From assembly GCA_944322935.1 (NCBI GenBank), contig CALUQO010000001.1:43934-107933 (forward strand): DNA of 64,000 nt. The letters are read 5' to 3'. Of the stretch, positions 3,288-63,315 are shown in pieces. The position numbers and the translations under genes are program-made. The stretch comes from Candidatus Gastranaerophilales bacterium (lineage in GTDB: Bacteria > Cyanobacteriota > Vampirovibrionia > Gastranaerophilales > Gastranaerophilaceae). The stretch's first letter is position 1; every line of letters begins with the position of its first letter. The notes under the pieces are model-generated. The model searched no databases and was not told where the DNA came from. It worked only from the letters and a program-made list of their open reading frames with translations.

Positions 3288-5372
3288 ATGGACATGAGTA
3301 ACAATTTTGACTACAAAGAATTTGCAAAAAGCCTGGAAACTCAATGTGTTGAGCTTATTCCCGCTGAATTTTGCACACAGGATAAAGACTACATAATTCA
3401 AAAAGTGTATGATTTTTCTTTGATGGCAGGTGAAGCCTTGTGCAATGACGACGTTTTGAACATTGACGCTCAATCAAAAGTGCTTATTGCACAAATGATT
3501 GCTGAATGGGCTTTTCATAAATCATGCGACCTCATCAGGGCAAATATTCCGGCACGATATCGTGATGAAATTTTGCAAAAAATCGCATTTGCGGTTTTTG
3601 AAGTCGCAAAACAAGGTTTTACCCAAAAAGTTCCTCAGAGGGACATTCTTAACTTAGCTGAATATCACGTTAATAAAACCTACAAAGAATGTATAGAAGA
3701 CCTGACTAAAAGACACATTATCAGCCAAACTGATGCGCAAAACGCCCTGTCTTTATCAAACATTGATGAAATGGCGGCAAAAGAATCGGCTTCCCGAAAG
3801 CGCAAAAGCTTTATAACAGTTTGTTCGGATCTCTTTTTCGGCATAAAAGTTAAAATAAAAAATACGGCAGAAAAACTTAAGGAATCTGCTGCTGCTTATT
3901 TTTCAAATATATTTACCTGGATAATAATATCCTTTGCCATAGCGTTAGGTCTGCTGTTTTATTTCAAACCCGCTCAAAATATATTGGATGAAATTACAAA
4001 ATTCGGTCTTAGCAGCGCAATAGCAATTGCTGCTTTTTTAATAATATTCAACACCTTTGTTGATTCAGAAAGAAAATTTTATAAAAAAATAAATATAATT
4101 GCAGGCGGAATTTGTGCAATAGTAGCTTTTGCATTGTTGAGTGTATCCATTTACGGAATTTTTGCGGGCTGCAATTTTTACGTTCCCTGTTGGCTAACAA
4201 TAACAATAAGCGTGTTCTTGGGAATTTATTCCTTCAAAATTCTAATTGCTGTTGATATTCAAACACAGCTGGAACAGCTGGAGCAAATACGTCAAAAAAT
4301 GCAATATATGTCAGCCCCTAATGTCATGTATGAAAGCCTCGGTGTTGATGTTATGGAAATTCAAATAGGCGCAGGGCTTTTGCCTGTTGCAGACCCTGAT
4401 GCCGGCGGACAGTTACCTGCCAAAAATGCAGCGCTAAGACAACGCCTCACTGATGAACTCGGGTATATTCTGCCATCAATAAGGATTCGTGATTTTGCAC
4501 AGCTGGACGCCAATGAATACTCGATTATTATAAGAGGCAGCGAAGCAGCTTCCGGCTTTGTGTATCCGGACAGATATATGGTGCTTGCACGGGAATGGGA
4601 AACAAAATGTAATACAATTCCGGAAGATGCAATAATTTCAGCCGCTCCGGAAGATAAATCCCCCTGTTACTGGCTGAGGGAACAAGATTTAAAAAACGTA
4701 AAAAACATCACCGCAACAAAACCCGCAGATGTAATAATAAACCATTTGAAAAAAATAGCAATAGAAAACGTTGACAGTATATTAACAACTGCCGATGTAC
4801 TTAAATACCTTGAACTTGCTATTTATGACGAACAAATTACACTGGTGCAAAGCTTGCGCGACAGGCTGCCGGTGGAAGATATAAGAAAAATATTCGTAAA
4901 CCTTATCAGAGAAGAAGTGTCAATAAAAGACGTTATGTTTATTGTTGACAGACTGAACGATTTTGCCAGATTCTCAAAATCTCCGGATGTTCTCTCCGAA
5001 CAATTAAGAGGTGTTATGGCACGCAAAATTTGTCTAAAAAACTGCGACAGGGACAAAGTGCTTTACTCTGTAACGATTTGCGAAAAGTATGAAAAAATAC
5101 TCTTAAAAAGCATTGAAGAAAGACAACAGTATATCACTTTCAACCTTAGTACCGATTTTAAATTTGAACTTATAGAAAATACGGGAAACGCAATGCTAAA
5201 AGCACACCAAATTGTCGGAAAACAACCGGTGATTCTCTGTCCGTCAAAAATCAGACTACCGCTATTCAGACTCTTAAAAGACTATATTCCTGCGGCAGTT
5301 GTTATCTCTTATGAGGAAATTGTTTCCGATATAAAAACTGAAACAGTAGGAGAAATTAAGGAAAATATATAA
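3288..5372 (+). CDS. membrane protein with FlhA/SctV-type C-terminal cytoplasmic domain and a non-FHIPEP N-terminus
   Basis: aa ~350-694 match the FlhA cytoplasmic domain by eye along its length: LGVDVMEIQIGAGLLPVADPDAGGQL, LGYILPSIRIRD, YSIIIRGSEAASG, VSIKDVMFIVDRL, PVILCPSKIRLPLFRLL. aa 1-205 are soluble with no recognizable family, and aa ~206-321 contain about 4 TM helices. The conserved FHIPEP TM core motifs are not visible. Confidence 0.8.
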   Translation: MDMSNNFDYKEFAKSLETQCVELIPAEFCTQDKDYIIQKVYDFSLMAGEALCNDDVLNIDAQSKVLIAQMIAEWAFHKSCDLIRANIPARYRDEILQKIAFAVFEVAKQGFTQKVPQRDILNLAEYHVNKTYKECIEDLTKRHIISQTDAQNALSLSNIDEMAAKESASRKRKSFITVCSDLFFGIKVKIKNTAEKLKESAAAYFSNIFTWIIISFAIALGLLFYFKPAQNILDEITKFGLSSAIAIAAFLIIFNTFVDSERKFYKKINIIAGGICAIVAFALLSVSIYGIFAGCNFYVPCWLTITISVFLGIYSFKILIAVDIQTQLEQLEQIRQKMQYMSAPNVMYESLGVDVMEIQIGAGLLPVADPDAGGQLPAKNAALRQRLTDELGYILPSIRIRDFAQLDANEYSIIIRGSEAASGFVYPDRYMVLAREWETKCNTIPEDAIISAAPEDKSPCYWLREQDLKNVKNITATKPADVIINHLKKIAIENVDSILTTADVLKYLELAIYDEQITLVQSLRDRLPVEDIRKIFVNLIREEVSIKDVMFIVDRLNDFARFSKSPDVLSEQLRGVMARKICLKNCDRDKVLYSVTICEKYEKILLKSIEERQQYITFNLSTDFKFELIENTGNAMLKAHQIVGKQPVILCPSKIRLPLFRLLKDYIPAAVVISYEEIVSDIKTETVGEIKENI

Positions 5373-5467: not shown

Positions 5468-6196
5468 ATGAAAATTAATAATACAATACAGCGCAGAACT
5501 TATTACACTCGAAGTAATTGTAATAAATCATCTTCAAACAAAAATTTCAAAGGACGTATGTTAACCGGCCCAAAATTGTCACGGCTTGGTTCTGTGTCTT
5601 TTTTAACTTCTTTAGCCGGACAGGGGGTTGCTTTCTGCACAGGCAGCTTCACTGTTGCATTGGGTTCTGCCTGTTTAAGCGGCATCGGTATTTTAGCGGA
5701 AACGCTTGGTATGTTTGTCAAAAACGGAGAGCTGCTCAAACTGAAAAAACATATTGATTGGGTAAAATCAAAAAATATTGAAGAGGCTGCAAATTTTGCT
5801 CAACAGAATTTTAAAATAAGAAATTTTAAAGTGAATGACCTTGATACCGCAAACTGGATAAACGAAGGTTTGACAAAAATAAGTAATAAATTTCAAGGAA
5901 AAACATATATGCCCAGAGAAATTAAACTGGAACCTCTGGATTGGTGCGAATATAATCCTGATAACGGCGGGGTGGGTGCTTTATATGACCGTGCGGCAGA
6001 TGGCATAACATTTAACCAAAATGCATATAAGGGGATTGACAAAAGGTTAAAAAACTATTTGCAGACTACATCTCTGTTTGAAGATGATTTTATATCTGTT
6101 CCGGGGACGGAAAATATTGATAATATTTACGATGTGCTGGAAAAGTATAAAACAAATCCTTCTTTACTTACAAATCCTGAAAAATTATCACTGTGA
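5468..6196 (+). CDS. hypothetical membrane-associated protein; 5' portion of a gene interrupted by an in-frame TGA
   Basis: 242-aa ORF. It has an N-terminal polar leader MKINNTIQ...NFKG, then a hydrophobic Gly/Ala-rich segment. It ends at TGA 6194-6196, in the same frame as the next ORF with no other stop between them. Confidence 0.6.
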   Translation: MKINNTIQRRTYYTRSNCNKSSSNKNFKGRMLTGPKLSRLGSVSFLTSLAGQGVAFCTGSFTVALGSACLSGIGILAETLGMFVKNGELLKLKKHIDWVKSKNIEEAANFAQQNFKIRNFKVNDLDTANWINEGLTKISNKFQGKTYMPREIKLEPLDWCEYNPDNGGVGALYDRAADGITFNQNAYKGIDKRLKNYLQTTSLFEDDFISVPGTENIDNIYDVLEKYKTNPSLLTNPEKLSL

Positions 6197-6253
6197 TCAT
6201 CTCTGACAAGAAGATTCGACATATACTACCAGATTGAAACACAGCCTGAAAAA

Positions 6254-6589
6254 GTGTTGGATTATTTAAAACAATGCCTTTCGGAAAATAAACCGGACAG
6301 CCATATGTACGGTAATATTAATTACAACAAATTCGATTACCTGTTTCATGAAATGGGGCATATGATAGATTTTAAAACACAAACCCCGTATTTCGAAATT
6401 AAAAATAAAATCAAAAATTCCAAAGTTTTTGAAAAACAGATAGATTCTATGGTAATCCCTCAAAATGCGGCAAAAAATAAAAGTGAATTTATTGCGGAAA
6501 TTACGTCGGGTCAATTAAACGGTGATACTTATCCGGATGTAATAATGAAACTGTTTAACAAAGTTTGTAATATCAAAATTCCGCAATAA
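6254..6589 (+). CDS. HExxH zinc-metallopeptidase-like fragment; 3' portion of the interrupted gene
   Basis: Contains LFHEMGHMIDF (HExxH). It is in the same frame as 5468..6196, and the only in-frame start is a GTG with no convincing RBS. Confidence 0.5.
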   Translation: MLDYLKQCLSENKPDSHMYGNINYNKFDYLFHEMGHMIDFKTQTPYFEIKNKIKNSKVFEKQIDSMVIPQNAAKNKSEFIAEITSGQLNGDTYPDVIMKLFNKVCNIKIPQ

Positions 6590-6705: not shown

Positions 6706-7482
6706 ATGGGTGACCTTTTTGGCGATTACAAAATTACTTTGCCTGATTTTTCACTTGTAGCACCGAGAGATGCGACTTATGTTCGTACGGATTTTATAAC
6801 ACAGGCTCAGGCGGAAATTTTAGCGGACTCAATTAACAGGCGCAAACAAGAGGTTGAGCAAAGCAAAAAAGAAGAAGCGGCAATCCGTCAAAAATATGAA
6901 ACAGTTTCTAATATGATAAAGAATGATAAGGCTGCTCCAAAGAACCTGGATGTGGACAAAATGACGGATATGATTATGAATGCAGCTAATGAAACAGGGG
7001 TTGACCCTATAATTATAGCAAGCATTGCAAAGCAGGAAACTCATTACAACCAGAATGTTCCTACAGGCAACGGCAGCGGAATTATGCAGTTGACTTCAAT
7101 ATCCATAAAAGATATGTATCAGCGTCCTAATGTATATGATCCGCAAATGAAGCAGCTGATGAAAAAATATGGCAGTCTGGAAAAGATTTTTGCAGCAAAG
7201 AAAAAAGACCCTTCTTTGAACCTTGGAAACTTCGGAGAAATGCTCTATAAATACGGCGACTGGGAAAAACTCAGAAATGCGATGAGAAAAGATTCGCAGT
7301 TGAATATAACGCTTGGCGCATATCTTTTTAAGGCTAAATTGAATGCAGCAGACGGAGATGTTCATAAGGCTCTTGTAAATTATAACGGAAGCTCGCGTAA
7401 GCTTGCTTATGCAAAATCTGTTATGGGCTTTATTGATGAAGTCAACGCCCAACAGAAAAAGAGCATAAATTCTGTTGCATAA
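6706..7482 (+). CDS. lytic transglycosylase (SLT domain) without a recognizable signal peptide
   Basis: SLT motifs IIASIAKQETHYNQ (catalytic Glu), GSGIMQLT and a downstream Y..YNGS. RBS AGAGGAG lies upstream of the ATG. The N-terminus MGDLFGDYKITLPDF has no hydrophobic h-region. Confidence 0.85.
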   Translation: MGDLFGDYKITLPDFSLVAPRDATYVRTDFITQAQAEILADSINRRKQEVEQSKKEEAAIRQKYETVSNMIKNDKAAPKNLDVDKMTDMIMNAANETGVDPIIIASIAKQETHYNQNVPTGNGSGIMQLTSISIKDMYQRPNVYDPQMKQLMKKYGSLEKIFAAKKKDPSLNLGNFGEMLYKYGDWEKLRNAMRKDSQLNITLGAYLFKAKLNAADGDVHKALVNYNGSSRKLAYAKSVMGFIDEVNAQQKKSINSVA

Positions 7483-10825: not shown

Positions 10826-11644
10826 ATGTTTAATTCTGTATCTTATTCAAAGGAAGCACAAAACTATTATGAATCAACGTATGCTTCTACACCAATTAAC
10901 AGCGATAATAAAGTTGCACGCTCTATAAAAAAAGGCGACAATTTATGGAATATTGCGAAGGAGCATCTTAAAAAAGAAGATGCATCAAACGCCGAAATTT
11001 TGGATATGATGTATAAAATAGCCAAACTTAACAACAAAAGCTCTATTGAAGCTGCTAACAATCTTGATGTTAATGAAATAATTTATCTGCCAGGGAAAAA
11101 TAAGCCGTCAAGCTCTAATAACCCTGTCGAAAATGCGTTTGATGTTTCGCAAAAAATTAATGATATCATTGTTCCTAAGGGCGATGCAACATATAACCAG
11201 AAAGCGCTATATCGTTTGCAGAATATAAAAAATATTCCGCAGGATTTGTATAAAGAACATGCGCAGGCTGGGGTCGGCTATTGGGACAAAACTCTGAGCG
11301 ACAAAAATAACAAATTTGTAATATCAAAATCAACTTCGTATTCTCCAGTTATTTATACAGGATTGTCTGTTATAAAGAAAGAAAATAACAATCCGTACGG
11401 CAAAACCGAAGGGCAAATGTATATAGAAGTTGATAAACAAGGACAGGTAAAAGATATTTGCTTTGAAGTACCGGGAGTAAATATTTCAGATACGAGTTTT
11501 GATTATCAACTTGACAGGGACGGTAACTTATACAAGCATACAGGATTTTTTGACAGGTATGAAAAAATAGGTCAGCTTCCGGCAGAGCAGTATCAAAACT
11601 TAATTAATCAAGCGCAGGAATATTTTGACAATAATGTCAAATAA
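10826..11644 (+). CDS. LysM-domain protein, no signal peptide
   Basis: IKKGDNLWNIAKEHL...IYLPG is LysM-like. The rest is unassigned. A GGGGAG RBS is present. Confidence 0.65.
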   Translation: MFNSVSYSKEAQNYYESTYASTPINSDNKVARSIKKGDNLWNIAKEHLKKEDASNAEILDMMYKIAKLNNKSSIEAANNLDVNEIIYLPGKNKPSSSNNPVENAFDVSQKINDIIVPKGDATYNQKALYRLQNIKNIPQDLYKEHAQAGVGYWDKTLSDKNNKFVISKSTSYSPVIYTGLSVIKKENNNPYGKTEGQMYIEVDKQGQVKDICFEVPGVNISDTSFDYQLDRDGNLYKHTGFFDRYEKIGQLPAEQYQNLINQAQEYFDNNVK

Positions 11645-17599: not shown

Positions 17600-18682
17600 T
17601 TGGCAATTTTTTCGGATAACGATAATATTCAAAAAACATTAAAAATTGAACGTGATAAAAAAAACGAAAACCTTGAGTCTAAAGAAATAGGCTATGATAG
17701 GGCTTTTGAAAATAACATACGTCCGCAGACTCTTGAAGAGTACATAGGACAAACCGCACTGAAAAGTACTTTAAAAATTTCGATTGAGGCTGCTCAAAAA
17801 AGAAATAAACAAATAGACCACATGCTGTTTTACGGCCCCCCGGGACTTGGTAAAACAACGCTTGCTTCTGTTATAGCTAACGAGTTAAAAACCAAAATTA
17901 AAATCACTTCTGCCCCTGCTCTGGAGCGTCCGAGAGATATTATCGGTATACTGATGTCTTTAAAAAACGGCGAAATTCTTTTTATAGATGAAATTCACCG
18001 CTTAAACAAGGTTACGGAAGAAATCTTGTATCCGGCTATGGAAGATTTTTTTCTTGATATGACAACAGGCAAGGCGCAAACCGTAAAAACTCTGAGAGTT
18101 CCTCTGCCGAAATTTACGCTTATCGGTGCCACAACAAAAGCCGGAGCATTGTCGGGTCCTCTTCGTGACAGGTTCGGGATAATACACAGGCTGCAGTTTT
18201 ATACAATTGATGAGCTTGCGCAGGTAATATCAAGAACAGCAAAAATTTTAGAAATTGATATAGATGAAGAAGGTGCAAAAACTATCGCAAGCCGCTCAAG
18301 AGGCACTCCGAGAATTGCAAACAGGCTGGTGAAAAGGGTTGCGGATTATGCTCTTGTAAAAGCTGACGCCAAAATTACAAAACCCGTTGCGATAGAAGCG
18401 CTTAACAATCTGCACATTGATGAAAGCGGTCTGGATTCAACCGACAGAGAGATGATGAAGCTTATTATCGAAAAATACGACGGCGGCCCCGTCGGGCTGG
18501 AAACTATTGCCGCTGCACTTGGTGAGGATTCAAGAACAATCGAAGATGTTTATGAACCGTACCTTTTGCAGGAAGGTTTTATACAAAGAACCCCCAGAGG
18601 CAGAAGAGTTTCTCCGGAAGGTTACAGAATGCTTGGATACAAATTACCCTCAAACCCTTCGGGACAACAGAGTTTGTTTTGA
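17600..18682 (+). CDS. ruvB: Holliday junction branch-migration helicase RuvB
   Basis: [11 protein letters not shown], Walker [10 protein letters not shown], Walker [14 protein letters not shown], sensor [10 protein letters not shown] and a C-terminal winged helix. TTG start 9 nt after GGGAG. Confidence 0.95.
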
Positions 18683-18808
18683 ATTTTTTTGGTTTGACGT
18701 ATATTTTTTGAAATTATCTTTGTAACAAAATTTAAACAAATATAAAAATTTGTTTCCATTCTTTACTACAAAAGTGGTAATATTTAATAAAAAAAGGGAA
18801 AAAGATTT

Positions 18809-19357
18809 ATGAAAGTTACTGCTGTCTCTGCGAATGGACAAAATCGCATTAATTGTGCTGGAAAAAATCAGAAGAATAATCCGGCTTTTGAGGGTGTTTA
18901 TGTTAAAGGTCTAAAACAACAGGATATTTTGAACCTGTATGAAGACGGGCCAGGCATTTGGAGAATGATAAAAAACGTTACTCCTTATTTAAAAGAAAAA
19001 TTTCCGATGTTTCATACGGTTATTCAGGTAGGCAGAAATTATTTCCGTGATATTAATGTTTCATTTATCAGAAACAAAGCAATGGATCATGAGCTGAAAA
19101 ATTATATTGTTAACAAAAACAGCTCAACGTTCCAATTACCGGATTATATTGTAGATTCTTTCAGGTACGGAAGTGATGATTTTGCCGGATTTTTGGACGG
19201 AAAAAATTACACACCTATGCTAAAAATGCAATACGGAAAACTTGGTGAAGCGGATGCAACAAACCGTTTTATGAGATTTATACGCACAAACAATCAGGAC
19301 TCGGTCATAAGATATATGTATGAAAACGAGGGTTCAACAATAACAAATAACATATAG
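18809..19357 (+). CDS. hypothetical protein carrying the N-terminal M-K-V...PAFEG leader
   Basis: 182-aa ORF. Leader is MKVTAVSANGQNRINCAGKNQKNNPAFEG. No TM helix or Sec signal. Distantly similar layout to the next ORF (GP....I.PYL). Confidence 0.6.
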   Translation: MKVTAVSANGQNRINCAGKNQKNNPAFEGVYVKGLKQQDILNLYEDGPGIWRMIKNVTPYLKEKFPMFHTVIQVGRNYFRDINVSFIRNKAMDHELKNYIVNKNSSTFQLPDYIVDSFRYGSDDFAGFLDGKNYTPMLKMQYGKLGEADATNRFMRFIRTNNQDSVIRYMYENEGSTITNNI

Positions 19358-19387
19358 ATAACAGTAAATGGTCTGAGGTAAAAAATA

Positions 19388-20089
19388 ATGAAAATAAATT
19401 CAATAAATAACAGTCTGACAGTTCATAACTCCCGCAAAAATAACAACAAACATAAACCTGCTTTTGGGGCTAAGGTACAGTACTTTGATGTTGTAAAAGA
19501 TGTTGTTTCCAATGAATTAATAGACATAACCAAGGGCCCGCTAAAAACATTAACGGATAGAATCATACCTTATTTGCAAAGGCTGGATGATGACAATTTG
19601 ATAATAACAATCAGCGGTACCCAAAAAAAACCAGGGTTTCTGGATCTTTTTAAAAGCAAACCCGATCAGGGGCTTAAATTTGATTTAAATTATTTTGACG
19701 CAAAAAGATTCTATAATAAATTTATGTCCGATGCAGAACTGCCAAAATTTTTGGATCCTGAATATTTAAAAGGTTTCAAAAGAAAAGACGAAGTGCTTAT
19801 GAATACACTTACGGAAACCATCGGTGTCGGGAAAATATACAGGCCCGACAAAGGCGAAACTCCGGAACAATTTATTGGTGAGGTTATACCCAAAATACAA
19901 GAACATCTGAGAATTATGCCCAAACTCATAACAGAGGGCAGAGCTGATATAAAATACGATACAAAATTTCAACACTTTGTACAAAACGGTCAGATTGACC
20001 CGACTCAAAGAAGACCCTGGAATCTTTACAGGGGGATTGAATTTGATTATCCCAAAATAGAGTTTACGGACATGAAACAAGTTGTGTGA
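19388..20089 (+). CDS. hypothetical protein carrying the N-terminal M-K-I...PAFGA leader
   Basis: 233-aa ORF. Leader is MKINSINNSLTVHNSRKNNNKHKPAFGA. A GAGG RBS is present. Confidence 0.6.
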   Translation: MKINSINNSLTVHNSRKNNNKHKPAFGAKVQYFDVVKDVVSNELIDITKGPLKTLTDRIIPYLQRLDDDNLIITISGTQKKPGFLDLFKSKPDQGLKFDLNYFDAKRFYNKFMSDAELPKFLDPEYLKGFKRKDEVLMNTLTETIGVGKIYRPDKGETPEQFIGEVIPKIQEHLRIMPKLITEGRADIKYDTKFQHFVQNGQIDPTQRRPWNLYRGIEFDYPKIEFTDMKQVV

Positions 20090-42235: not shown

Positions 42236-42940
42236 TTATTGCAAAACCGCTCTTGCAATTTTTCCCGGCGGATGCAGTCTGTCGCCGGAAGGCAAGTCTC
42301 CGTATTTTTCTTTCATACGAGCTATAAGGCGTTTTTTGTCGGGGTCGGGGTCAAAAAACAGTTTTTCGTATATGCTGACTCCGTCCGCAACAATAGGTGC
42401 AGTTGAGTTGGAAAAAACTTTTCCGTACTTCTTTATAAAAGCACGATGTGCAACTGCATTCATCCCCAAAAAGTTTAACTCCTCCTGGACAGAACTTTGA
42501 CCGTCCTTATCTTTAGCGTGTCCTGCCTCGTGCAAAATAGCCTCGCCTATCGCCAGCATAACAGCGAAATCTTTTGTATTTTGGTATTTTTTATTTATCA
42601 TTATTGCGTTGCGGTCAAAACTATACTGTGCGTGCACCCCTTTTTCATATGGTTTTGCAAAATGCAGACGGATGTTTTCTTTTTCTATAAAATCAACACA
42701 CTCTCTGCCCGATTTAAAAGGAAGTTTGATTCCGATTGATTCCATATATTTTATATCTTCAGGGGCAAACGTCAGTTCATTTATTTCGGACAACGCTGTT
42801 GTTAACACATTATCACGCACCCAGGGCAAGTCTTTTTGAAAATCTATTTCCTTGGGTTTTAATGCATTTTGCTGCGGTTTCCAATTGTATTTTGTTACAA
42901 AAGAGGATATATTTGCATATACAGGCGAAATGGGAACCAT
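42236..42940 (-). CDS. HExxH zinc-metallopeptidase-like protein
   Basis: AILHEAGHAKD motif. No Sec signal. The N-terminus is polar (MVPISPVYANISSF...IDFQK). Confidence 0.65.
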   Translation of the reverse strand: MVPISPVYANISSFVTKYNWKPQQNALKPKEIDFQKDLPWVRDNVLTTALSEINELTFAPEDIKYMESIGIKLPFKSGRECVDFIEKENIRLHFAKPYEKGVHAQYSFDRNAIMINKKYQNTKDFAVMLAIGEAILHEAGHAKDKDGQSSVQEELNFLGMNAVAHRAFIKKYGKVFSNSTAPIVADGVSIYEKLFFDPDPDKKRLIARMKEKYGDLPSGDRLHPPGKIARAVLQ

Positions 42941-42966: not shown

Positions 42967-44184
42967 TTAGTTTTTATCATCAAAAGAAATCGTGTAATCA
43001 GGACTTACAGCCAGCCATCTGAAAGATTCCTGCTCATCATTTTCAGGCAGGTCAACAACAAATGTGCCGCCGTATCTTCCTCTTGAAAAATTGACAATAC
43101 CCTGTTTTGCAAGATTTTGCAAGGCTTTCCGTATTGTGTTTGAAGAAACATCAAACTGCTTTGCTAAATCATCCATGGAAGGAAGTTTGTCCCCTATATC
43201 ATAATTGGAAGAAATGAATTTTTTTATTTCATTTTCAATTTTTTGATAACTATAAAACGCTGCTTCCGCTGCTGAAGCGAATATTGATGTTTCGTTAAGA
43301 GGCTGCATGATATTTTGCGTGGAGTCATTGCCGGGAATTTTTATTATTGTTGTACCGTAACGTCCGCGCCGTGCCAGCAGATAGCCCTCATCAATAAGCG
43401 TTTTCATTGCATCGTGAACTGTTTTTATGCTTACTTTTAGAATCTCGGATAATTCTTGATGCGCCGGCAGTCTGTCGCCAATTTTATAATTTGTTCGTAT
43501 GTAGTCTTTTATTTCCTGCTCAACCTTGTATACAAGGGTATCTGCTGTTATTTCCTCCGCTTCATTGTGCAGAACCGACTCTTCTTCTTCGGAAAATTCT
43601 GGATATTTTTTTAATATCCAGTTAGAATCGTTTGAACGGAATGCTTTAGCAGCTATAACGCCCTGTGCCGCAAGAAAATCCAGTGCAAGTCTTATTGTAT
43701 TTGTTGAATTTCCTATTTCTGCAGCTAGAAAACGGGCAGAGGGAAGAGAATCGCCTAAAGCAAGATTGTTGTCAACGATATACTTTTTTATTTGGGTGAT
43801 TACTTTTTCTCTTTTTGAAGAGGCCTTTCGTATAATAGGATTAGAGGCACTTTCGCCCCTGATAATAGTACCGATGCGTTGTTTAGATTCCAGCAGTCCT
43901 GCATCTTCCACGCATCTTACCGCATTTTGTACAGTACCGACACTTACCCCCAAATAATATGCAAGATCCTGTTTTTTAGGCAGCAGTGAGTTAGGCCGGA
44001 TTCCGCCTTTTTGTATACCAGATACAATCCAATCGGTCAACCATTTTTTTATTATGGAATCTTTTGATTCAAATGTATTTTTAAAATCAGGAATCTCTTT
44101 TGGAAGCTGGTTAATTTCTATGCGATGGAGTTCTGATTTTTCTAATTTTTCAAATGTAATTTCTGATGCAGATTTGCCTGCCAT
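42967..44184 (-). CDS. protein composed of four tandem GntR-type winged-HTH domains
   Basis: Four copies of the GntR pattern (..G..LPS...LA...GVS..T...A...L...G.......G.G.FV) at aa ~43-108, 127-191, 217-282 and 311-377. No effector-binding domain. Confidence 0.8.
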   Translation of the reverse strand: MAGKSASEITFEKLEKSELHRIEINQLPKEIPDFKNTFESKDSIIKKWLTDWIVSGIQKGGIRPNSLLPKKQDLAYYLGVSVGTVQNAVRCVEDAGLLESKQRIGTIIRGESASNPIIRKASSKREKVITQIKKYIVDNNLALGDSLPSARFLAAEIGNSTNTIRLALDFLAAQGVIAAKAFRSNDSNWILKKYPEFSEEEESVLHNEAEEITADTLVYKVEQEIKDYIRTNYKIGDRLPAHQELSEILKVSIKTVHDAMKTLIDEGYLLARRGRYGTTIIKIPGNDSTQNIMQPLNETSIFASAAEAAFYSYQKIENEIKKFISSNYDIGDKLPSMDDLAKQFDVSSNTIRKALQNLAKQGIVNFSRGRYGGTFVVDLPENDEQESFRWLAVSPDYTISFDDKN

Positions 44185-44400: not shown

Positions 44401-44985
44401 ATGTCAGCTATTAACGGTGACACCATCACCATCCAAAACGGCCAGACACTGAGCCAAATTGCGGAAGAATACGGAGTTTCCGTGGCAGCAATTCAAGCGG
44501 CCAACAACTTAAAAGGGACAAATATCATTGCTGGAACAGAACTTATAATACCCTTTCCCGAGCCGGAATTCAGCAATGATTACACAAACAACAAACTGGA
44601 TAAATATAAATTTTCTAAAAAAGAAATAAAAGAAAATTCAGAATATTCGGAAGAAAAAATTGCACTGGCAAATTCAACAAACAAAAAACTAAAAGATCAG
44701 GTTGCCAGACTGACAGTTAATAAAAAATCGGGTTATGTTCAAATTAATTTAAAGCAGGATATTACTGCAGATGAGCTAAAAGAACTATACAACATTCCCG
44801 ACGGAATTTTAAAACATTACAATGATTTGGAATTCGAATGGAAAGATACGGGTGACGAAGCAGGGCACCAGTACAAAGATTGGGGCAATCCAACTTTTTA
44901 CAGAGGAGAATCCGTAATTGTTCCGCCGAGCAGTTTTGAATATCTCGGCTTTTTCCGAGAAACATGGGAAGCATTAACACGCTGA
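44401..44985 (+). CDS. LysM-domain protein, no signal peptide
   Basis: ITIQNGQTLSQIAEEYGVSVAAIQAANNLKGTNIIAGTELIIP is a canonical LysM domain at the extreme N-terminus. GAGGAG RBS. Confidence 0.75.
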   Translation: MSAINGDTITIQNGQTLSQIAEEYGVSVAAIQAANNLKGTNIIAGTELIIPFPEPEFSNDYTNNKLDKYKFSKKEIKENSEYSEEKIALANSTNKKLKDQVARLTVNKKSGYVQINLKQDITADELKELYNIPDGILKHYNDLEFEWKDTGDEAGHQYKDWGNPTFYRGESVIVPPSSFEYLGFFRETWEALTR

Positions 44986-46593: not shown

Positions 46594-48234
46594 TTAGCCC
46601 ATAGCCGCTACCTGCGGCTCTTCATTAAGCTTTTGCTGTTTTATTTCCGTATATTTTGACGCCGAAGTATCAGTATCTTTTGCAGTAAAGCCGATAGGAC
46701 GTCTTTTGGTTTTACCCGATGCTTTAAGATTTTGAGCAAGGTGTTTTTCCAGACCTTTTTCAAAATCCTGCGATGTTAAAACAAGATTTTTAATATCGTT
46801 TGTATCGAAGGTGCCCTGCTCAATTTTGTCAAAAACCCCCAATCTGTCGTATGCGATATCATACGCATTATCTATTACCTGATTTGTATCTGAACCTGTT
46901 AACTTGTTTTCATACAGCTTTTTGGCAAAATTATTTATATTGAATTTTTTCTCAACATTAACTTTTTTCAGCTGTTTGGAAAAAATATCTTTTATTCCTT
47001 CAAAATCCGGTACGGGTATTTCAATTTGTTTACCAAGCCTGCCTGCTCTCAGCACAGCATCGTCAAGGAGCTCCGGTCTGTTTGTTGTTGAGATTACAAA
47101 CACCTGATCGTTATTTTTTTCCAGATCACTGATTAATGCCAATATCTGATTAAGTTCATCAGCAGCGTATGGTTGCAGTGCGCTTCTTGTTTTGAAAACA
47201 GCATCACACTCATCGATAAGCAGAATGCTTGGCTGATTGTCAACAGCTTCTTTGAACAAGTTCCTCCAGTTGGCCTCGGTTTGTCCGACAAGCCCTCCTC
47301 TTAAAGAACCGGCGTTAATTTCATAATAATTGGCTCCCGCATCGTTTGCCAGAGCTTTGGCAACAAAAGTTTTACCTGTTCCCGGCGGGCCGTATAGAAT
47401 AATACCGTGGTTAACCTTTCTGTTTAAGAATGCCTCCGGCTTTTTTATCGGGTAAAGTATATTCTTTTTTAATTCTTTTACCACGCTATCCATACCTCCT
47501 ACATCAGCAAGTCCGAATTTGGCAGCCTGAACATCATCAAGAAAAATATTTTTAAAAGTTCTTTTATTTACGTTAACAATAGAGGGCTGAACAAATTCAG
47601 TAAAGTTGTACGGCTCGCTGAATTCGGCACGCATAAAGCTCAAATTTTCTTTAGATCTTTCTTTTACACTGAAGTGGAATTTGTTATTCAAATTAACAGT
47701 GGCTTCTGGCGTAATCCATACACCTGCTTTTTTACCAACAGCATAATTTTTCCCCTCAAGATTTGTTACAAGGATGGGAGCATTCCCCAGATTAATAAGC
47801 TCCGGCGCAACATCGCTGCGTGAGATAGCTATAGCCTCTGGGATTTTTTCTTCCGGCAGAAAAAATACTCTTTTTATAACCCTGTTAAATGCATCAATCG
47901 ATTCATTTAAAAATTTATTTGCCGTCTTTTTATTCTTAGCCGCAACTATTAAATCATTTGTATCTATGATTTCAACAAGCGAAGCAAGTCTTTCTTCAAA
48001 AGGAATACTCTTTATCACGGACGGAAGAACCTTACCGACCTGCTGCACGCCTTTGAATGAAATTTCATCACTTTTGGGTTTTACAAGCAGTCTGTTGTAG
48101 TGAATATCTGCAAGTTGAACGTTAGGAGCATTTTCCTGCTGCTTTTCCAGAGTTACGTCTTGGTTTTTGTTTGTATTATAAATTTTTTTGTATGTTTCGG
48201 GTGTAATGTAAGGCTTGATTGCTGAAATTTGCAT
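46594..48234 (-). CDS. soluble classical-clade AAA+ ATPase with a novel N-terminal region and polar leader
   Basis: Walker A GPPGTGKTF, Walker B LLIDECDAVF, sensor-1 TTNRP and arginine-finger region DDAVLRAGRL. One AAA module, no protease domain, no TM helix. The leader MQISAIKPY...ISFKG is at the N-terminus. Confidence 0.85.
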   Translation of the reverse strand: MQISAIKPYITPETYKKIYNTNKNQDVTLEKQQENAPNVQLADIHYNRLLVKPKSDEISFKGVQQVGKVLPSVIKSIPFEERLASLVEIIDTNDLIVAAKNKKTANKFLNESIDAFNRVIKRVFFLPEEKIPEAIAISRSDVAPELINLGNAPILVTNLEGKNYAVGKKAGVWITPEATVNLNNKFHFSVKERSKENLSFMRAEFSEPYNFTEFVQPSIVNVNKRTFKNIFLDDVQAAKFGLADVGGMDSVVKELKKNILYPIKKPEAFLNRKVNHGIILYGPPGTGKTFVAKALANDAGANYYEINAGSLRGGLVGQTEANWRNLFKEAVDNQPSILLIDECDAVFKTRSALQPYAADELNQILALISDLEKNNDQVFVISTTNRPELLDDAVLRAGRLGKQIEIPVPDFEGIKDIFSKQLKKVNVEKKFNINNFAKKLYENKLTGSDTNQVIDNAYDIAYDRLGVFDKIEQGTFDTNDIKNLVLTSQDFEKGLEKHLAQNLKASGKTKRRPIGFTAKDTDTSASKYTEIKQQKLNEEPQVAAMG

Positions 48235-61005: not shown

Positions 61006-63315
61006 TTATGCAAGCGAGCCTCTTGTGTAATCAGGCATGCTTGCCTGTTTCATATCCTCTTTAAATATTTTCATTGCTTGCTTAATATTATGGCTGAGTT
61101 TTTCAAATTCTTTTTGTTTGTTGTTTTGTTTAACCCAGTTGTCAAACATTTTTTCGAATTTTTCGCCCGTAATTATATCTGCATTTGCCAGAGGGCCGGT
61201 TGTGATTTTATCAATATATTCTTTTATAAAAGGTTCCGTAAACTCGGTAATCATATTTGCAATTTCCATACCTGTATTGGAATAACGGATGATGTCGTTT
61301 TTGATATCCGGTTTGAACAATTCAAAAGTAACACCGTTTGTATCACAGCCGATGTACTTTGTTTTAGAACCAAGACCCCATTCGGTTGTTGCCTGTAAAA
61401 TCAAGTCGGTGCAATTTTTGAGGTCGCTGGACACACCGTCAGTGTGACAGTCAAACAGACATTCCTCCACACTGTAACCGCCGTAGTTTACGGCAAGCCT
61501 GCTCAGCAGAGATTCTACGGTAATTCTGTTGTTGTCTGTTGGTTTCATCATTGTCAAACCTGCCGCATCACCCCTTGATTCGTTAACAATAAAGTCAAGC
61601 GCCTGCATTGGCTGTTTTGATTTTTGTGCTTCGTCTTTGAATACATTATTTAATACAATCTGGTTTATTGCATGGCCTGCTTCGTGTGCACGCGTTTTTT
61701 GCAGTTCATAGTCGGATTTTTCGCTGTCGTTTTTTATGCCTACAATAGCTTCCAGCTTGGCTTCCTGTATATCTTTAGCGGTTATGTAGGGCAATTGTCT
61801 GTCTTTGTATAGAGTTTTTCTGTAAGAACGTTTTATAACGTCAGCAAGTTCTGCGCCGGACATACCTGCGGAAGATTTTGCCAGTTCATCAAGCAGCTTA
61901 TTTTTTTCCGTGTCATTTTTAAACGGCTTATCTTTTGCATTAATTGCCAAAATTTCACGTCTTGCTTTTTCGCTGAACCTCGGGTCGTCAATTTTGAACT
62001 CCATATCGATACGCCCCTTGCGAAAAGCATTGTCAAACAGGTCACGTCTGTTTGTTGCAAATATGGTTATAACTTTTATATCGTTTTCTTCTTTAGACTG
62101 CACCCCATCCAATTCCCCGAGCAGTGCGTTTAAGGTTGCATCGCCTTCTCTGTTGGAAGACGCACCTCTTTTGCCTGCAATGGCATCTGCCTCGTCTATA
62201 AAGACTATTGCTGTTTTTGTTTCGCTTGCGCGTGCAAGCTTGCGGGCTTGTGCATAAAGCTCACGCACATTTTTGGCACCGGCTCCTACATAAATTTCGT
62301 TAAAGCTGCTGCCGTTAGTACTAATCAAAGGCACGCCGGCTTCTCCTGCAATTGCGGTAGCAAGAAGAGTTTTTCCGGTTCCCGGAGGGCCGAATAAGAT
62401 AATACCGCCAGGTTTGTCAGCATTTTTTACTTTAGGATTATTCAATATGTTCAGCAGTTCTTCCTGAATCTGTTTTTTTACATTGAACATACCGCCGACG
62501 TCGGAAAATCTGGTCTTTACGTGAGAATAAACTTTGAAATTTGATTTTGTTTTTTCTTTTGTTTCCTCGTCGGAGAGACGGGCTTTATCATTTTTTTTGT
62601 TTGTATTTTTAAGTGCATTCTGATATTTACCTGCAATTATCGGATTATCAAGCTCAAATTGAGCTCTTTCCGCTTCAAACTCCTGAGCAACCTGAGGATA
62701 GCCGGATTCTCTAAGCTCTTCAACAATATCAGTGTTAATCCCAAAGGTGTTTTTAGGCTGCATGTAATAAAATTCAGCCTGCTGTTCAGGTTTTAGTGTT
62801 TTGACGAGTGAAAAAATCTTGTGTGTTGTTAACAGAGTTTTGTCGTAATTAACAGACATAATCAGCGGCCCGTTCATTCTGTTTTTATCAGGAACGAGAA
62901 ACTTGAATTTTGTTGTATCATCCGTGTCTTCCGCTATATCAAGCAAGCTATTTGCTATATGTAATTTCCCTTCAACAAGAGCCATACTGAAAGGGGATTC
63001 CGGTGTTCCGTTGCGCGAGAGTAAAAAATGAGAAATAACAGTGTCGTTTTGATTATTTAAATCGTTGAAAAATGATTTTGCATCAAAGCCGTAATTTTTG
63101 ACCAGATTTTGTTTGTTTACATCAATATCGCTGTCTATAAGTTTTAGAAAATCTCTATAAAATTCCTCGGCTATATATCTGTCATTTATTCTTTTTCCGG
63201 TAAACGACGGGGACAAATATTCTTTATTCTCCCGTGCATATGGCCGTGAAATATATTGGCTTTTAGGCATTCCTCTGTTATTGGAATAGCTGCGGCTAAT
63301 GTATGTAACTTTCAT
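61006..63315 (-). CDS. FtsH-like AAA+ / M41 metalloprotease without transmembrane helices, with a novel N-terminal region and polar leader
   Basis: FSDVGG, Walker A GPPGTGKTL, Walker B VFIDEADAI, SRH ATNRRDLFDNAFRKGRID, and zinc site HEAGHAI with downstream YGGYSVEE. The first ~280 aa have no hydrophobic helix. The leader is MKVTYISRSY...SPSFTG. Confidence 0.85.
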   Translation of the reverse strand: MKVTYISRSYSNNRGMPKSQYISRPYARENKEYLSPSFTGKRINDRYIAEEFYRDFLKLIDSDIDVNKQNLVKNYGFDAKSFFNDLNNQNDTVISHFLLSRNGTPESPFSMALVEGKLHIANSLLDIAEDTDDTTKFKFLVPDKNRMNGPLIMSVNYDKTLLTTHKIFSLVKTLKPEQQAEFYYMQPKNTFGINTDIVEELRESGYPQVAQEFEAERAQFELDNPIIAGKYQNALKNTNKKNDKARLSDEETKEKTKSNFKVYSHVKTRFSDVGGMFNVKKQIQEELLNILNNPKVKNADKPGGIILFGPPGTGKTLLATAIAGEAGVPLISTNGSSFNEIYVGAGAKNVRELYAQARKLARASETKTAIVFIDEADAIAGKRGASSNREGDATLNALLGELDGVQSKEENDIKVITIFATNRRDLFDNAFRKGRIDMEFKIDDPRFSEKARREILAINAKDKPFKNDTEKNKLLDELAKSSAGMSGAELADVIKRSYRKTLYKDRQLPYITAKDIQEAKLEAIVGIKNDSEKSDYELQKTRAHEAGHAINQIVLNNVFKDEAQKSKQPMQALDFIVNESRGDAAGLTMMKPTDNNRITVESLLSRLAVNYGGYSVEECLFDCHTDGVSSDLKNCTDLILQATTEWGLGSKTKYIGCDTNGVTFELFKPDIKNDIIRYSNTGMEIANMITEFTEPFIKEYIDKITTGPLANADIITGEKFEKMFDNWVKQNNKQKEFEKLSHNIKQAMKIFKEDMKQASMPDYTRGSLA

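Follow-up and report, generated by a model that had tools for sequence, protein, structure and literature searches.

The window, by which we mean the whole stretch of 64,000 nucleotides (nt) of Candidatus Gastranaerophilales DNA analysed here (G+C 34–40%), contains five genes, set on gut metagenome contigs, whose products begin with the same type of non-hydrophobic N-terminal leader (Table 1). Gastranaerophilales are a gut order within the Melainabacteria, an uncultured, non-photosynthetic sister group of cyanobacteria that is frequent in non-industrialised human guts and about whose cell biology, to our knowledge, next to nothing is known. Two of the five genes represent families A (19388) and B (18809), while the others are named after their lowest coordinate (5468, 46594 and 61006). 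The part of each protein that follows the leader is referred to as the passenger.

Table 1. Leaders, their passengers and two context features in the window. Phe, residue number of the end-block phenylalanine; rank, position among candidate starts in the two-block score model.
Feature	Coordinates	Strand	Length (aa)	Phe	Sequence or domain	Rank
Leader of family A	19388..19471	+	28	F26	MKINSINNSLTVHNSRKNNNKHKPAFGA	5/1065
Family A gene	19388..20089	+	233		Passenger of unknown fold	
Leader of family B	18809..18895	+	29	F27	MKVTAVSANGQNRINCAGKNQKNNPAFEG	22/1065 (window copy)
Family B gene, immediately 5' of the family A gene	18809..19357	+	182		Unknown passenger	
Leader of 5468	5468..5554	+	29	F27	MKINNTIQRRTYYTRSNCNKSSSNKNFKG	7/1065
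5468 passenger	5468..6589	+			Gly/Ala/Ser-rich, moderately hydrophobic stretch, then HEMGH domain	
Long leader of the AAA ATPase 46594	48049..48234	-	62	F60	MQISAIKPY...LADIHYNRLLVKPKSDEISFKG	3/1065
AAA ATPase passenger	46594..48234	-	546		PF00004 at residues 278-407	
Leader of the FtsH-like protease 61006	63196..63315	-	40	F38	MKVTYISRSYSNNRGMPKSQYISRPYARENKEYLSPSFTG	1/1065
FtsH-like passenger	61006..63315	-	769		AAA + Peptidase_M41, without transmembrane segments	
FlhA C-terminal domain paralogue adjoining the 5468 gene (context only)	3288..5372	+			FHIPEP profile positions 266-656 only	
N-terminus of HEAGH protein 42236-42940 (analogous build, non-member)	42833..42940	-			MVPISPVY...IDFQK	

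In these five genes the leader consists of a start block, M-[KQ]-[IV]-x-x-[IV], at the extreme N-terminus, a polar, basic spacer with few acidic residues and of variable length and sequence, and an end block, [P/I/V]-[S/A]-F-x-G, directly ahead of the folded domain. The anchors take the more general forms M-[KRQN]-[IV]-x-x-[IV] at the N-terminus, positions 3 and 6 being I or V in every family, and [hydrophobic or P]-[S/A]-F-x-[G/A] at the passenger junction. The end-block consensus is [A/N/S]-[N/S]-x-[I/V/L]-[S/A/T]-F-x-[G/A/S], positions -2, -1, 0 and +2 relative to the Phe being conserved, and the Phe itself falls at residues 24–65 in 79 of 80 leaders and almost never before residue 24. The predicted starts have good support: in-frame upstream stops lie 2–12 codons away in four of the five genes, and the next in-frame start beyond each leader falls deep within the conserved body. 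Shine–Dalgarno-like GGAG/AAGGA sequences precede 18809, 19388, 46594 and 61006, with none upstream of 5468.

The start and end blocks go together far more often than expected. Four of the 62 window proteins begin with M[KQ][IV]..[IV], and each of these four has [AS]F.[GA] at residues 16–70 as well, against a background for the latter of 0.038 per window. We built a two-block score model from two matrices, one for residues 2–10 and one for the seven residues around the Phe, which were trained on approximately 79 FtsH-like leaders while the sequences of families A, B and 5468 were kept out. Among all 1065 candidate starts of the window in six frames, the five leaders took ranks 1, 3, 5, 7 and 22. 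The model was also applied to 270 proteins drawn from the window and from 12 related loci: leader proteins filled the first 16 places, among them orthologues of families A and B as well as 5468 (the family B orthologues with NPSFKG occupying ranks between 3 and 14), and the first false positive was a Sec signal peptide at rank 17. When the sample was extended by about 10 kb of the same genome past either end of the window (80 proteins in total), two new carriers emerged, a protein of 580 aa containing a DnaQ/RNase_T exonuclease domain (MKISAVTFYTNNK...NRFVPTFKGDFF) and a 219-aa protein of unknown family (MNISSLPIKSIYRYKPFDKLHSTPSFKSGNI), bringing the carriers to 7 of 80, or about 1 in 11. Six carriers scored at least 12.5 and the best non-carrier 8.5, family B gene 18809 (7.9) being the sole carrier below this gap. 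A GNAT identity for the 219-aa carrier, suggested by a motif seen by eye, was dropped when searches of Pfam and of PDB sequences gave no confirmation.

Profile–profile comparison located the likeness between unrelated families in the leader alone: both family A (E = 8.7e-4) and family B (E = 0.073) aligned with the FtsH-like family over the leaders only, M1 on M1 and F on F. Simpler tools performed less well. A single profile HMM from the family A leader matched family B weakly (E = 0.075), and its counterpart from 46 FtsH-like leaders did not even recover 61006. A first two-block score, with fewer leaders and other block widths, gave poor separation; linear leader profiles fail because the spacer is variable.

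The same two-anchor pattern is seen within families. In alignments of family A (11 homologues), family B (9 orthologues from the fetched loci) and 61006 (13 orthologues) the first 6–9 residues are kept and the Phe is invariant while the spacer drifts, and the anchors are conserved in this way in the orthologues of four families. Family A keeps MKINxINN and NPAF with an invariant F26, family B has M, VTA, SA, NR, K19, P25, F27 and G29 invariant, and the 5468 leader is kept among strain variants. This pattern shows selection acting on both anchors. Compared with the proteome, the leaders are rich in Asn (x2.3), Ser (x1.9), Pro (x1.6) and Lys (x1.23), neutral for Thr (x1.1) and poor in Leu (x0.67), Glu (x0.45) and Asp (x0.24), with a net charge of +1 to +8. 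AlphaFold2 models of family A and 61006 give the leader a pLDDT below 50 (residues 1–24 and 1–40 respectively) and predict no packing onto the protein's own body, the F-x-G block lying 1–6 residues ahead of the first structured element, which in family A is a strand at residues 29–32 and in 61006 begins a helical soluble domain. The leader is an intrinsically disordered N-terminal module, specific to this lineage and anchored at two conserved points, and it precedes mature domains that are not homologous; it is real, conserved and carried by unrelated proteins across Melainabacteria.

An earlier note made from the DNA alone had proposed this shared leader for the same five ORFs, and the translations, the ranking, the enrichment of the end block, the start sites and the conservation in orthologues all bear it out. 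Its statement that the mature parts are unrelated stands for families A and B against the FtsH-like family, which align by leader alone, and fails for 46594 and 61006, which share an AAA domain (35% identity, E = 3e-23) and form one leader-bearing superfamily, and are therefore not independent passengers. The identification of these two as an AAA ATPase and an FtsH-like protease was correct; 46594 is a CDC48/PAN/FtsH-type AAA protein that lacks both a protease domain and a transmembrane segment, and its leader resembles other long leaders, e.g. that of P0152 (...NTYNQLLVKKGNLPSSTAISFGS). Gene 5468, described as an HExxH protein, keeps its leader, but an in-frame TGA at 6194–6196, with the same frame on either side, splits it into ORFs 5468–6196 and 6254–6589, and the HEMGH motif lies in the downstream one. 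This gene is probably decaying rather than recoded, because its length differs between strains, with variants of 242, 212, 102 and 72 aa; its hydrophobic stretch peaks at 1.45 on the Kyte–Doolittle scale (19 residues). Relatives of family A occur at eight genome loci, seven of them in Candidatus Gastranaerophilales. Its passenger had no Pfam match, and Foldseek of the model against the PDB returned nothing below E = 0.09; the family B passenger likewise had no Pfam match. The two families align only over their first ~60 aa (E = 0.0015), and judging from this alignment they may be remote paralogues over the leader region only.

On soluble FtsH-like proteases the leader reaches well beyond the window. 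When 1.84 billion representatives were searched by phmmer with 61006 as query, some 50 clusters of AAA + M41 proteins were retrieved, 600–1200 aa in length and without transmembrane segments, with intact Walker and HExxH motifs, and the leader heads nearly all of these subfamilies across Melainabacteria. Within a set of 28 such proteins down to 45% identity, only M1 and F38 were invariant in the first 180 positions of the query. Protein 61006 and its relatives share with canonical FtsH (TIGR01241) an AAA module and an M41 protease module with the HEAGH motif, but where the latter has two N-terminal transmembrane helices and a periplasmic domain they have neither, carrying instead the leader and a variable soluble N-domain; 61006-type proteins score 267 bits against TIGR01241 (cut-off 600), and 61006 has no hydrophobic segment within its first 250 residues. 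Many of the FtsH-like proteases display a longer form of the leader, M-I-x-K-I-S followed by a polar stretch and the 'NLKANFxSFxG' box, Y-S-L-x-N-L-K-A-N-[FY]-x-x-[SA]-F-x-G. Eight long leaders (P0085, P0106, P0115, P0121, P0132, P0140, P0152 and P0164) contain an extra SF[KS]-type motif near residues 12–25 besides the terminal one, a repetition which suggests that the F motif may be a repeatable short docking element. Metagenome relatives of 61006, presumably from Gastranaerophilales, have leaders (MQINSINLYSVRSG...AIKFGN and MRINNISSYNLY...LSFGSDM) nearly identical to that of family A (MKINSINNSL...KPAFGAKV). The leader is class-wide, since one leader-bearing FtsH-like protein comes from a groundwater Candidatus Melainabacteria genome.

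The leader could not be assigned to any described signal, as the earlier note had also found. The five window leaders have no hydrophobic core (maximum Kyte–Doolittle value over 10 residues of -0.65 to 0.73, as opposed to 3.1–3.2 in two real signal peptides of the window; longest apolar run 2–4 residues), no RR-x-[FLIV] Tat motif and no lipobox [LVI][ASTVI][GAS]C, the single Cys of the 18809 leader being unconserved, so that the reported absence of Sec, Tat and lipoprotein signals holds. Neither the whole proteins nor the isolated leaders matched a Pfam or NCBIfam family. A literature search on Melainabacteria signals and FtsH expansion yielded nothing relevant, and no description of the leader was found.

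Several known N-terminal elements resemble it in part. Double-glycine leaders, which direct bacteriocins and cyanobacterial peptides to ABC transporters with a C39 peptidase domain, are likewise N-terminal and non-hydrophobic with small residues (G, A, S) before the mature part, and are frequent in the cyanobacterial lineage. They follow the rule that -2/-1 is GG, GA or GS and that -4, -7 and -12 are conserved hydrophobic positions, whereas here, counting from a Gly at -1, position -2 is variable, F stands at -3 and [I/V/L] at -5. An invariant Phe and then a variable residue thus stand ahead of the Gly, the hydrophobic positions have another register, and the passengers are proteins of 180–1200 aa instead of small peptides; a double-glycine leader was rejected. 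Chloroplast and mitochondrial transit peptides are acid-poor, basic, hydroxyl-rich and unstructured, those of chloroplasts with an 'FGLK' motif. They share with the leader this type of composition and semi-conserved Phe-Gly motifs, and they are borne by ATP-dependent proteases such as FtsH, ATP being present at the destination. They serve import into eukaryotic organelles, and we know of no internal compartment in Melainabacteria; the likeness is one of design only. The N-terminal extension that Prp cleaves from ribosomal protein L27 of Firmicutes and from phage 80alpha capsid proteins is also short, conserved, attached to unrelated proteins and terminated by a Phe beside a small residue, but it is 9–14 residues long, has no spacer and carries the motif LQxFA.

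Our favoured reading, to which we give a probability of roughly 0.4, is by analogy that the leader would be a targeting signal read in trans and built like the signal of an early flagellar type III substrate. One common receptor would read it as an address tag; this receptor would be an export gate of the flagellar type III kind, or something derived from it, retained by Gastranaerophilales even without a flagellum, and the passengers would be exported or delivered into another cell. In early flagellar substrates a Phe-containing gate recognition motif docks on FlhB_C (Evans 2013; Bryant 2022, PMC8983047), after which a small non-polar N-terminal signal, necessarily at least ~19–30 residues upstream of the docking motif, engages the gate (PMC8983047). 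The strict placement of the start block at residues 2–7, the disorder, the minimum spacer and the second, Phe-centred motif together match this design. Both signals have a disordered N-terminus with small non-polar residues among the first ~7, need no cleavage, and place a minimum spacer before the Phe motif (~19–30 residues there; Phe at residue 24 or later here). The leader has non-polar residues within its first ~10, as early substrates do, and the position of its Phe in 79 of 80 leaders agrees with the minimum motif spacing (PMC8983047). Type III effector signals are enriched in Ser, Thr and Pro and depleted in Leu, Asp, Glu, Ala and basic residues (Arnold 2009, PMC2669295); leader Ser, Pro, Leu, Asp, Glu and Ala follow this bias, Thr is neutral, as given above, and Lys runs against it. 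Injectisome effector signals resemble the leader further in being extremely N-terminal and disordered and in preceding unrelated enzymes; they differ in having no sequence consensus, while the leader has two conserved blocks with an invariant Phe, and no injectisome genes were seen here.

Gene content in the lineage is in keeping with this reading. Complete flagellar gene sets occur in only ~25% of Gastranaerophilales genomes, and flhB, fliI and flgG are widely retained in the order according to the literature. One genome with families A and B (L008) also encodes FlgK; run over that protein, or over a rod protein of this order, the end-block matrix selects [IV]SF directly behind the rod box. 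L027, a flagellated Gastranaerophilales genome, has a UshA/CD73-type 5'-nucleotidase (18159–19676, - strand) that starts with MINSISNTSVPKVNNKATKTS where its solved relatives, all periplasmic or ecto-enzymes, have a Sec signal peptide; directly adjoining its gene on that strand are fliJ, a rod gene and a fliK-like gene.

A number of observations weigh against a type III-style signal. The flagellar gate motif is FxxxPhi and that of the leader [I/V/P]-[S/A]-F-x-G; position +4 is mostly K, R, D or N in the 79 FtsH-like leaders, and among the five window leaders FxxxPhi fits only 19388 (FGAKV), 18809 (FEGVY) and 5468 (FKGRM). The start block is a true sequence consensus, where the flagellar signal is mere hydrophobicity, and Lys is enriched in the leader (x1.23), opposite to the depletion of basic residues in effector signals. 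The putatively exported passengers are enzymes and not axial proteins. The 5'-nucleotidase of L027 has no F-x-G block, the true flagellar FliE, rod and FliK-like proteins of the same genome rank only 56–82 of 270, and ten leaders compared with Pfam at E ≤ 10 matched no flagellar family (Flg_bb_rod, flagellin), although the start MI[KN]SIYS... bears a resemblance to MLRSLYSG.... The window holds no export-gate gene, only the FlhA_C paralogue, which lacks the gate membrane domain. Most carriers are ATP-dependent (AAA, AAA + M41) and conserved class-wide like housekeeping proteins, including in the groundwater genome; such enzymes could do nothing useful in the extracellular space, only inside another cell to which they had been delivered, which weighs against simple secretion.

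A reading that would accommodate the last point, and which we consider unlikely, is that the leader labels the cargo of a contact-dependent delivery system, flagellum-derived or wholly new, that would inject degradative enzymes into other cells. The cargo would then comprise ~9% of the sampled genes, i.e. ATP-dependent proteases, zinc proteases, an exonuclease and a nucleotidase, with ATP supplied within the recipient cells.

Other explanations dispense with transport. The leader might be a cytoplasmic docking tag or degron that tethers the carriers to a common cytoplasmic or membrane-face partner, either as a stand-in for the lost membrane anchor of FtsH or as a two-part tag for an AAA+ unfoldase (adaptor site plus N-terminal engagement site), with families A and B as adaptors, regulators or substrates of the FtsH-like proteases. 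We regard this, the main rival, as possible, if somewhat doubtful. It agrees with the prevalence of ATP-dependent or cytoplasm-type enzymes among the carriers, with the FtsH-like proteins having lost their two transmembrane helices and bearing the leader instead, with the internal SFK-type motifs of the long leaders, short linear docking motifs often being repeated in this way, and with a class-wide conservation resembling that of a housekeeping function. A docking motif, however, would not need a start block fixed at residues 2–7 in every family, the acid-poor, basic, Ser/Asn/Pro-rich spacer of minimum length is typical of transport signals, a leader-like start occurs on a 5'-nucleotidase akin to exported enzymes, and no partner was identified. 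A cleaved propeptide, cut at or near the invariant Phe by a dedicated protease and holding hydrolases or assembly subunits inactive until they are in place, in the manner of Prp with L27 or of the pro-regions of zymogens, is a distinctly less probable account: the position of F-x-G just ahead of the first structured element in both models, the protease-site-like conservation of -2, -1, 0 and +2 and the several hydrolase passengers (M41, HExxH, exonuclease) would suit it, but a cleavage site alone leaves residues 2–7 and the minimum spacer unexplained, the leader is not packed on the passenger in the AlphaFold2 models, families A and B have no recognisable catalytic domain, and no candidate protease co-occurred in the examined loci, Prp homologues not having been searched for.

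Two further explanations would deny the leader a function or a separate origin, and even jointly they are very improbable. That it has no common function, and reflects a Met-Lys-Ile start in an Asn/Lys-rich, AT-rich genome together with a motif chosen after the fact, is largely refuted: each block does hold little information, whole-leader profile HMMs miss other members and the early two-block score separated weakly, yet the end block is present in all four start-block proteins of the window, the independently trained model left a clean gap (18809 excepted) and predicted new members, and the Phe is invariant in every family while adjacent spacer residues drift. It is more improbable still that families A, B and 5468 are fragments or remote kin of the N-terminal domain of the FtsH-like proteins. 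Common descent accounts for 46594 and 61006, which are paralogues, and might account for the weak alignment of A with B over ~60 residues, but the profile alignments of A and B with the FtsH-like family end with the leader, and of the new carriers one has a DnaQ-type exonuclease domain and the other none that could be recognised.

The FlhA_C protein at 3288, which the earlier note had put forward as a possible partner of the leader, has no support in this role: no conserved neighbourhood links the two, and its relatives at three other loci (L028, L029 and L030) have no leader genes nearby. It belongs to a separate paralogue family with its own conserved N-domain. This N-terminus consists of a soluble domain followed by a hydrophobic stretch (residues ~205–330) that by eye resembles a few membrane segments, and the N-domain is homologous to a 343-aa protein (L027:8197–9228) encoded between fliF and fliH, the usual place of fliG, in the flagellated relative. 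Other members of the family are Peptidase_M10 fusions, a FliI-like ATPase fusion or tandem copies, and the metalloprotease fused to some of them is not homologous to 5468/6254. One such region (L030:1–23114), in a genome of 28.6% G+C, has 24 or more successive genes on one strand, almost all without a Pfam match and many with signal peptides, surrounding an FlhA_C–FliI fusion and a second FHIPEP fragment; it may be an undescribed system made from type III secretion parts.

The HEAGH protein 42236–42940, considered a weaker member by the earlier note, ranks 291 of 1065 and falls outside the leader family. Its own N-terminus keeps MTPISPVYA and IDFQKD[LM]PW, and the stretch of ~22 residues that separates these is hypervariable even among members of a 90%-identity cluster. 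The product of 10826–11644 (+) has a leader-like start, MFNSVSYSK (top ~7% for the start block), a polar 35-residue stretch and a LysM-like motif (KKGDNLWNIAKEHL); it lacks an F-x-G block, and the related loci yielded no orthologue. SLT and LysM domains normally act outside the cytoplasm; the SLT lytic transglycosylase domain protein 6706–7482 (+) and the LysM protein 44401–44985 (+) have neither a signal peptide nor the leader. The 405-aa protein 42967–44184 (-) contains four GntR-type winged-helix repeats, an unusual architecture for its family.

Taken together, the leader probably functions as a non-hydrophobic N-terminal targeting peptide, for which no prior description was found, directing its carriers to a destination or a docking partner; that it is the mark of a new delivery pathway has a modest chance of being true. 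Being defined by sequence, it provides a computational handle on a whole class of co-targeted Melainabacteria proteins. As an export signal it would account for the partial flagellar export machinery that most Gastranaerophilales possess without a flagellum, and would list the substrates of that machinery; as a cytoplasmic docking tag it would show how a large family of soluble FtsH-like proteases is organised. On the unlikely reading of contact-dependent delivery, gut Gastranaerophilales would be predators or parasites akin to their relative Vampirovibrio, with an effector repertoire predictable by sequence.

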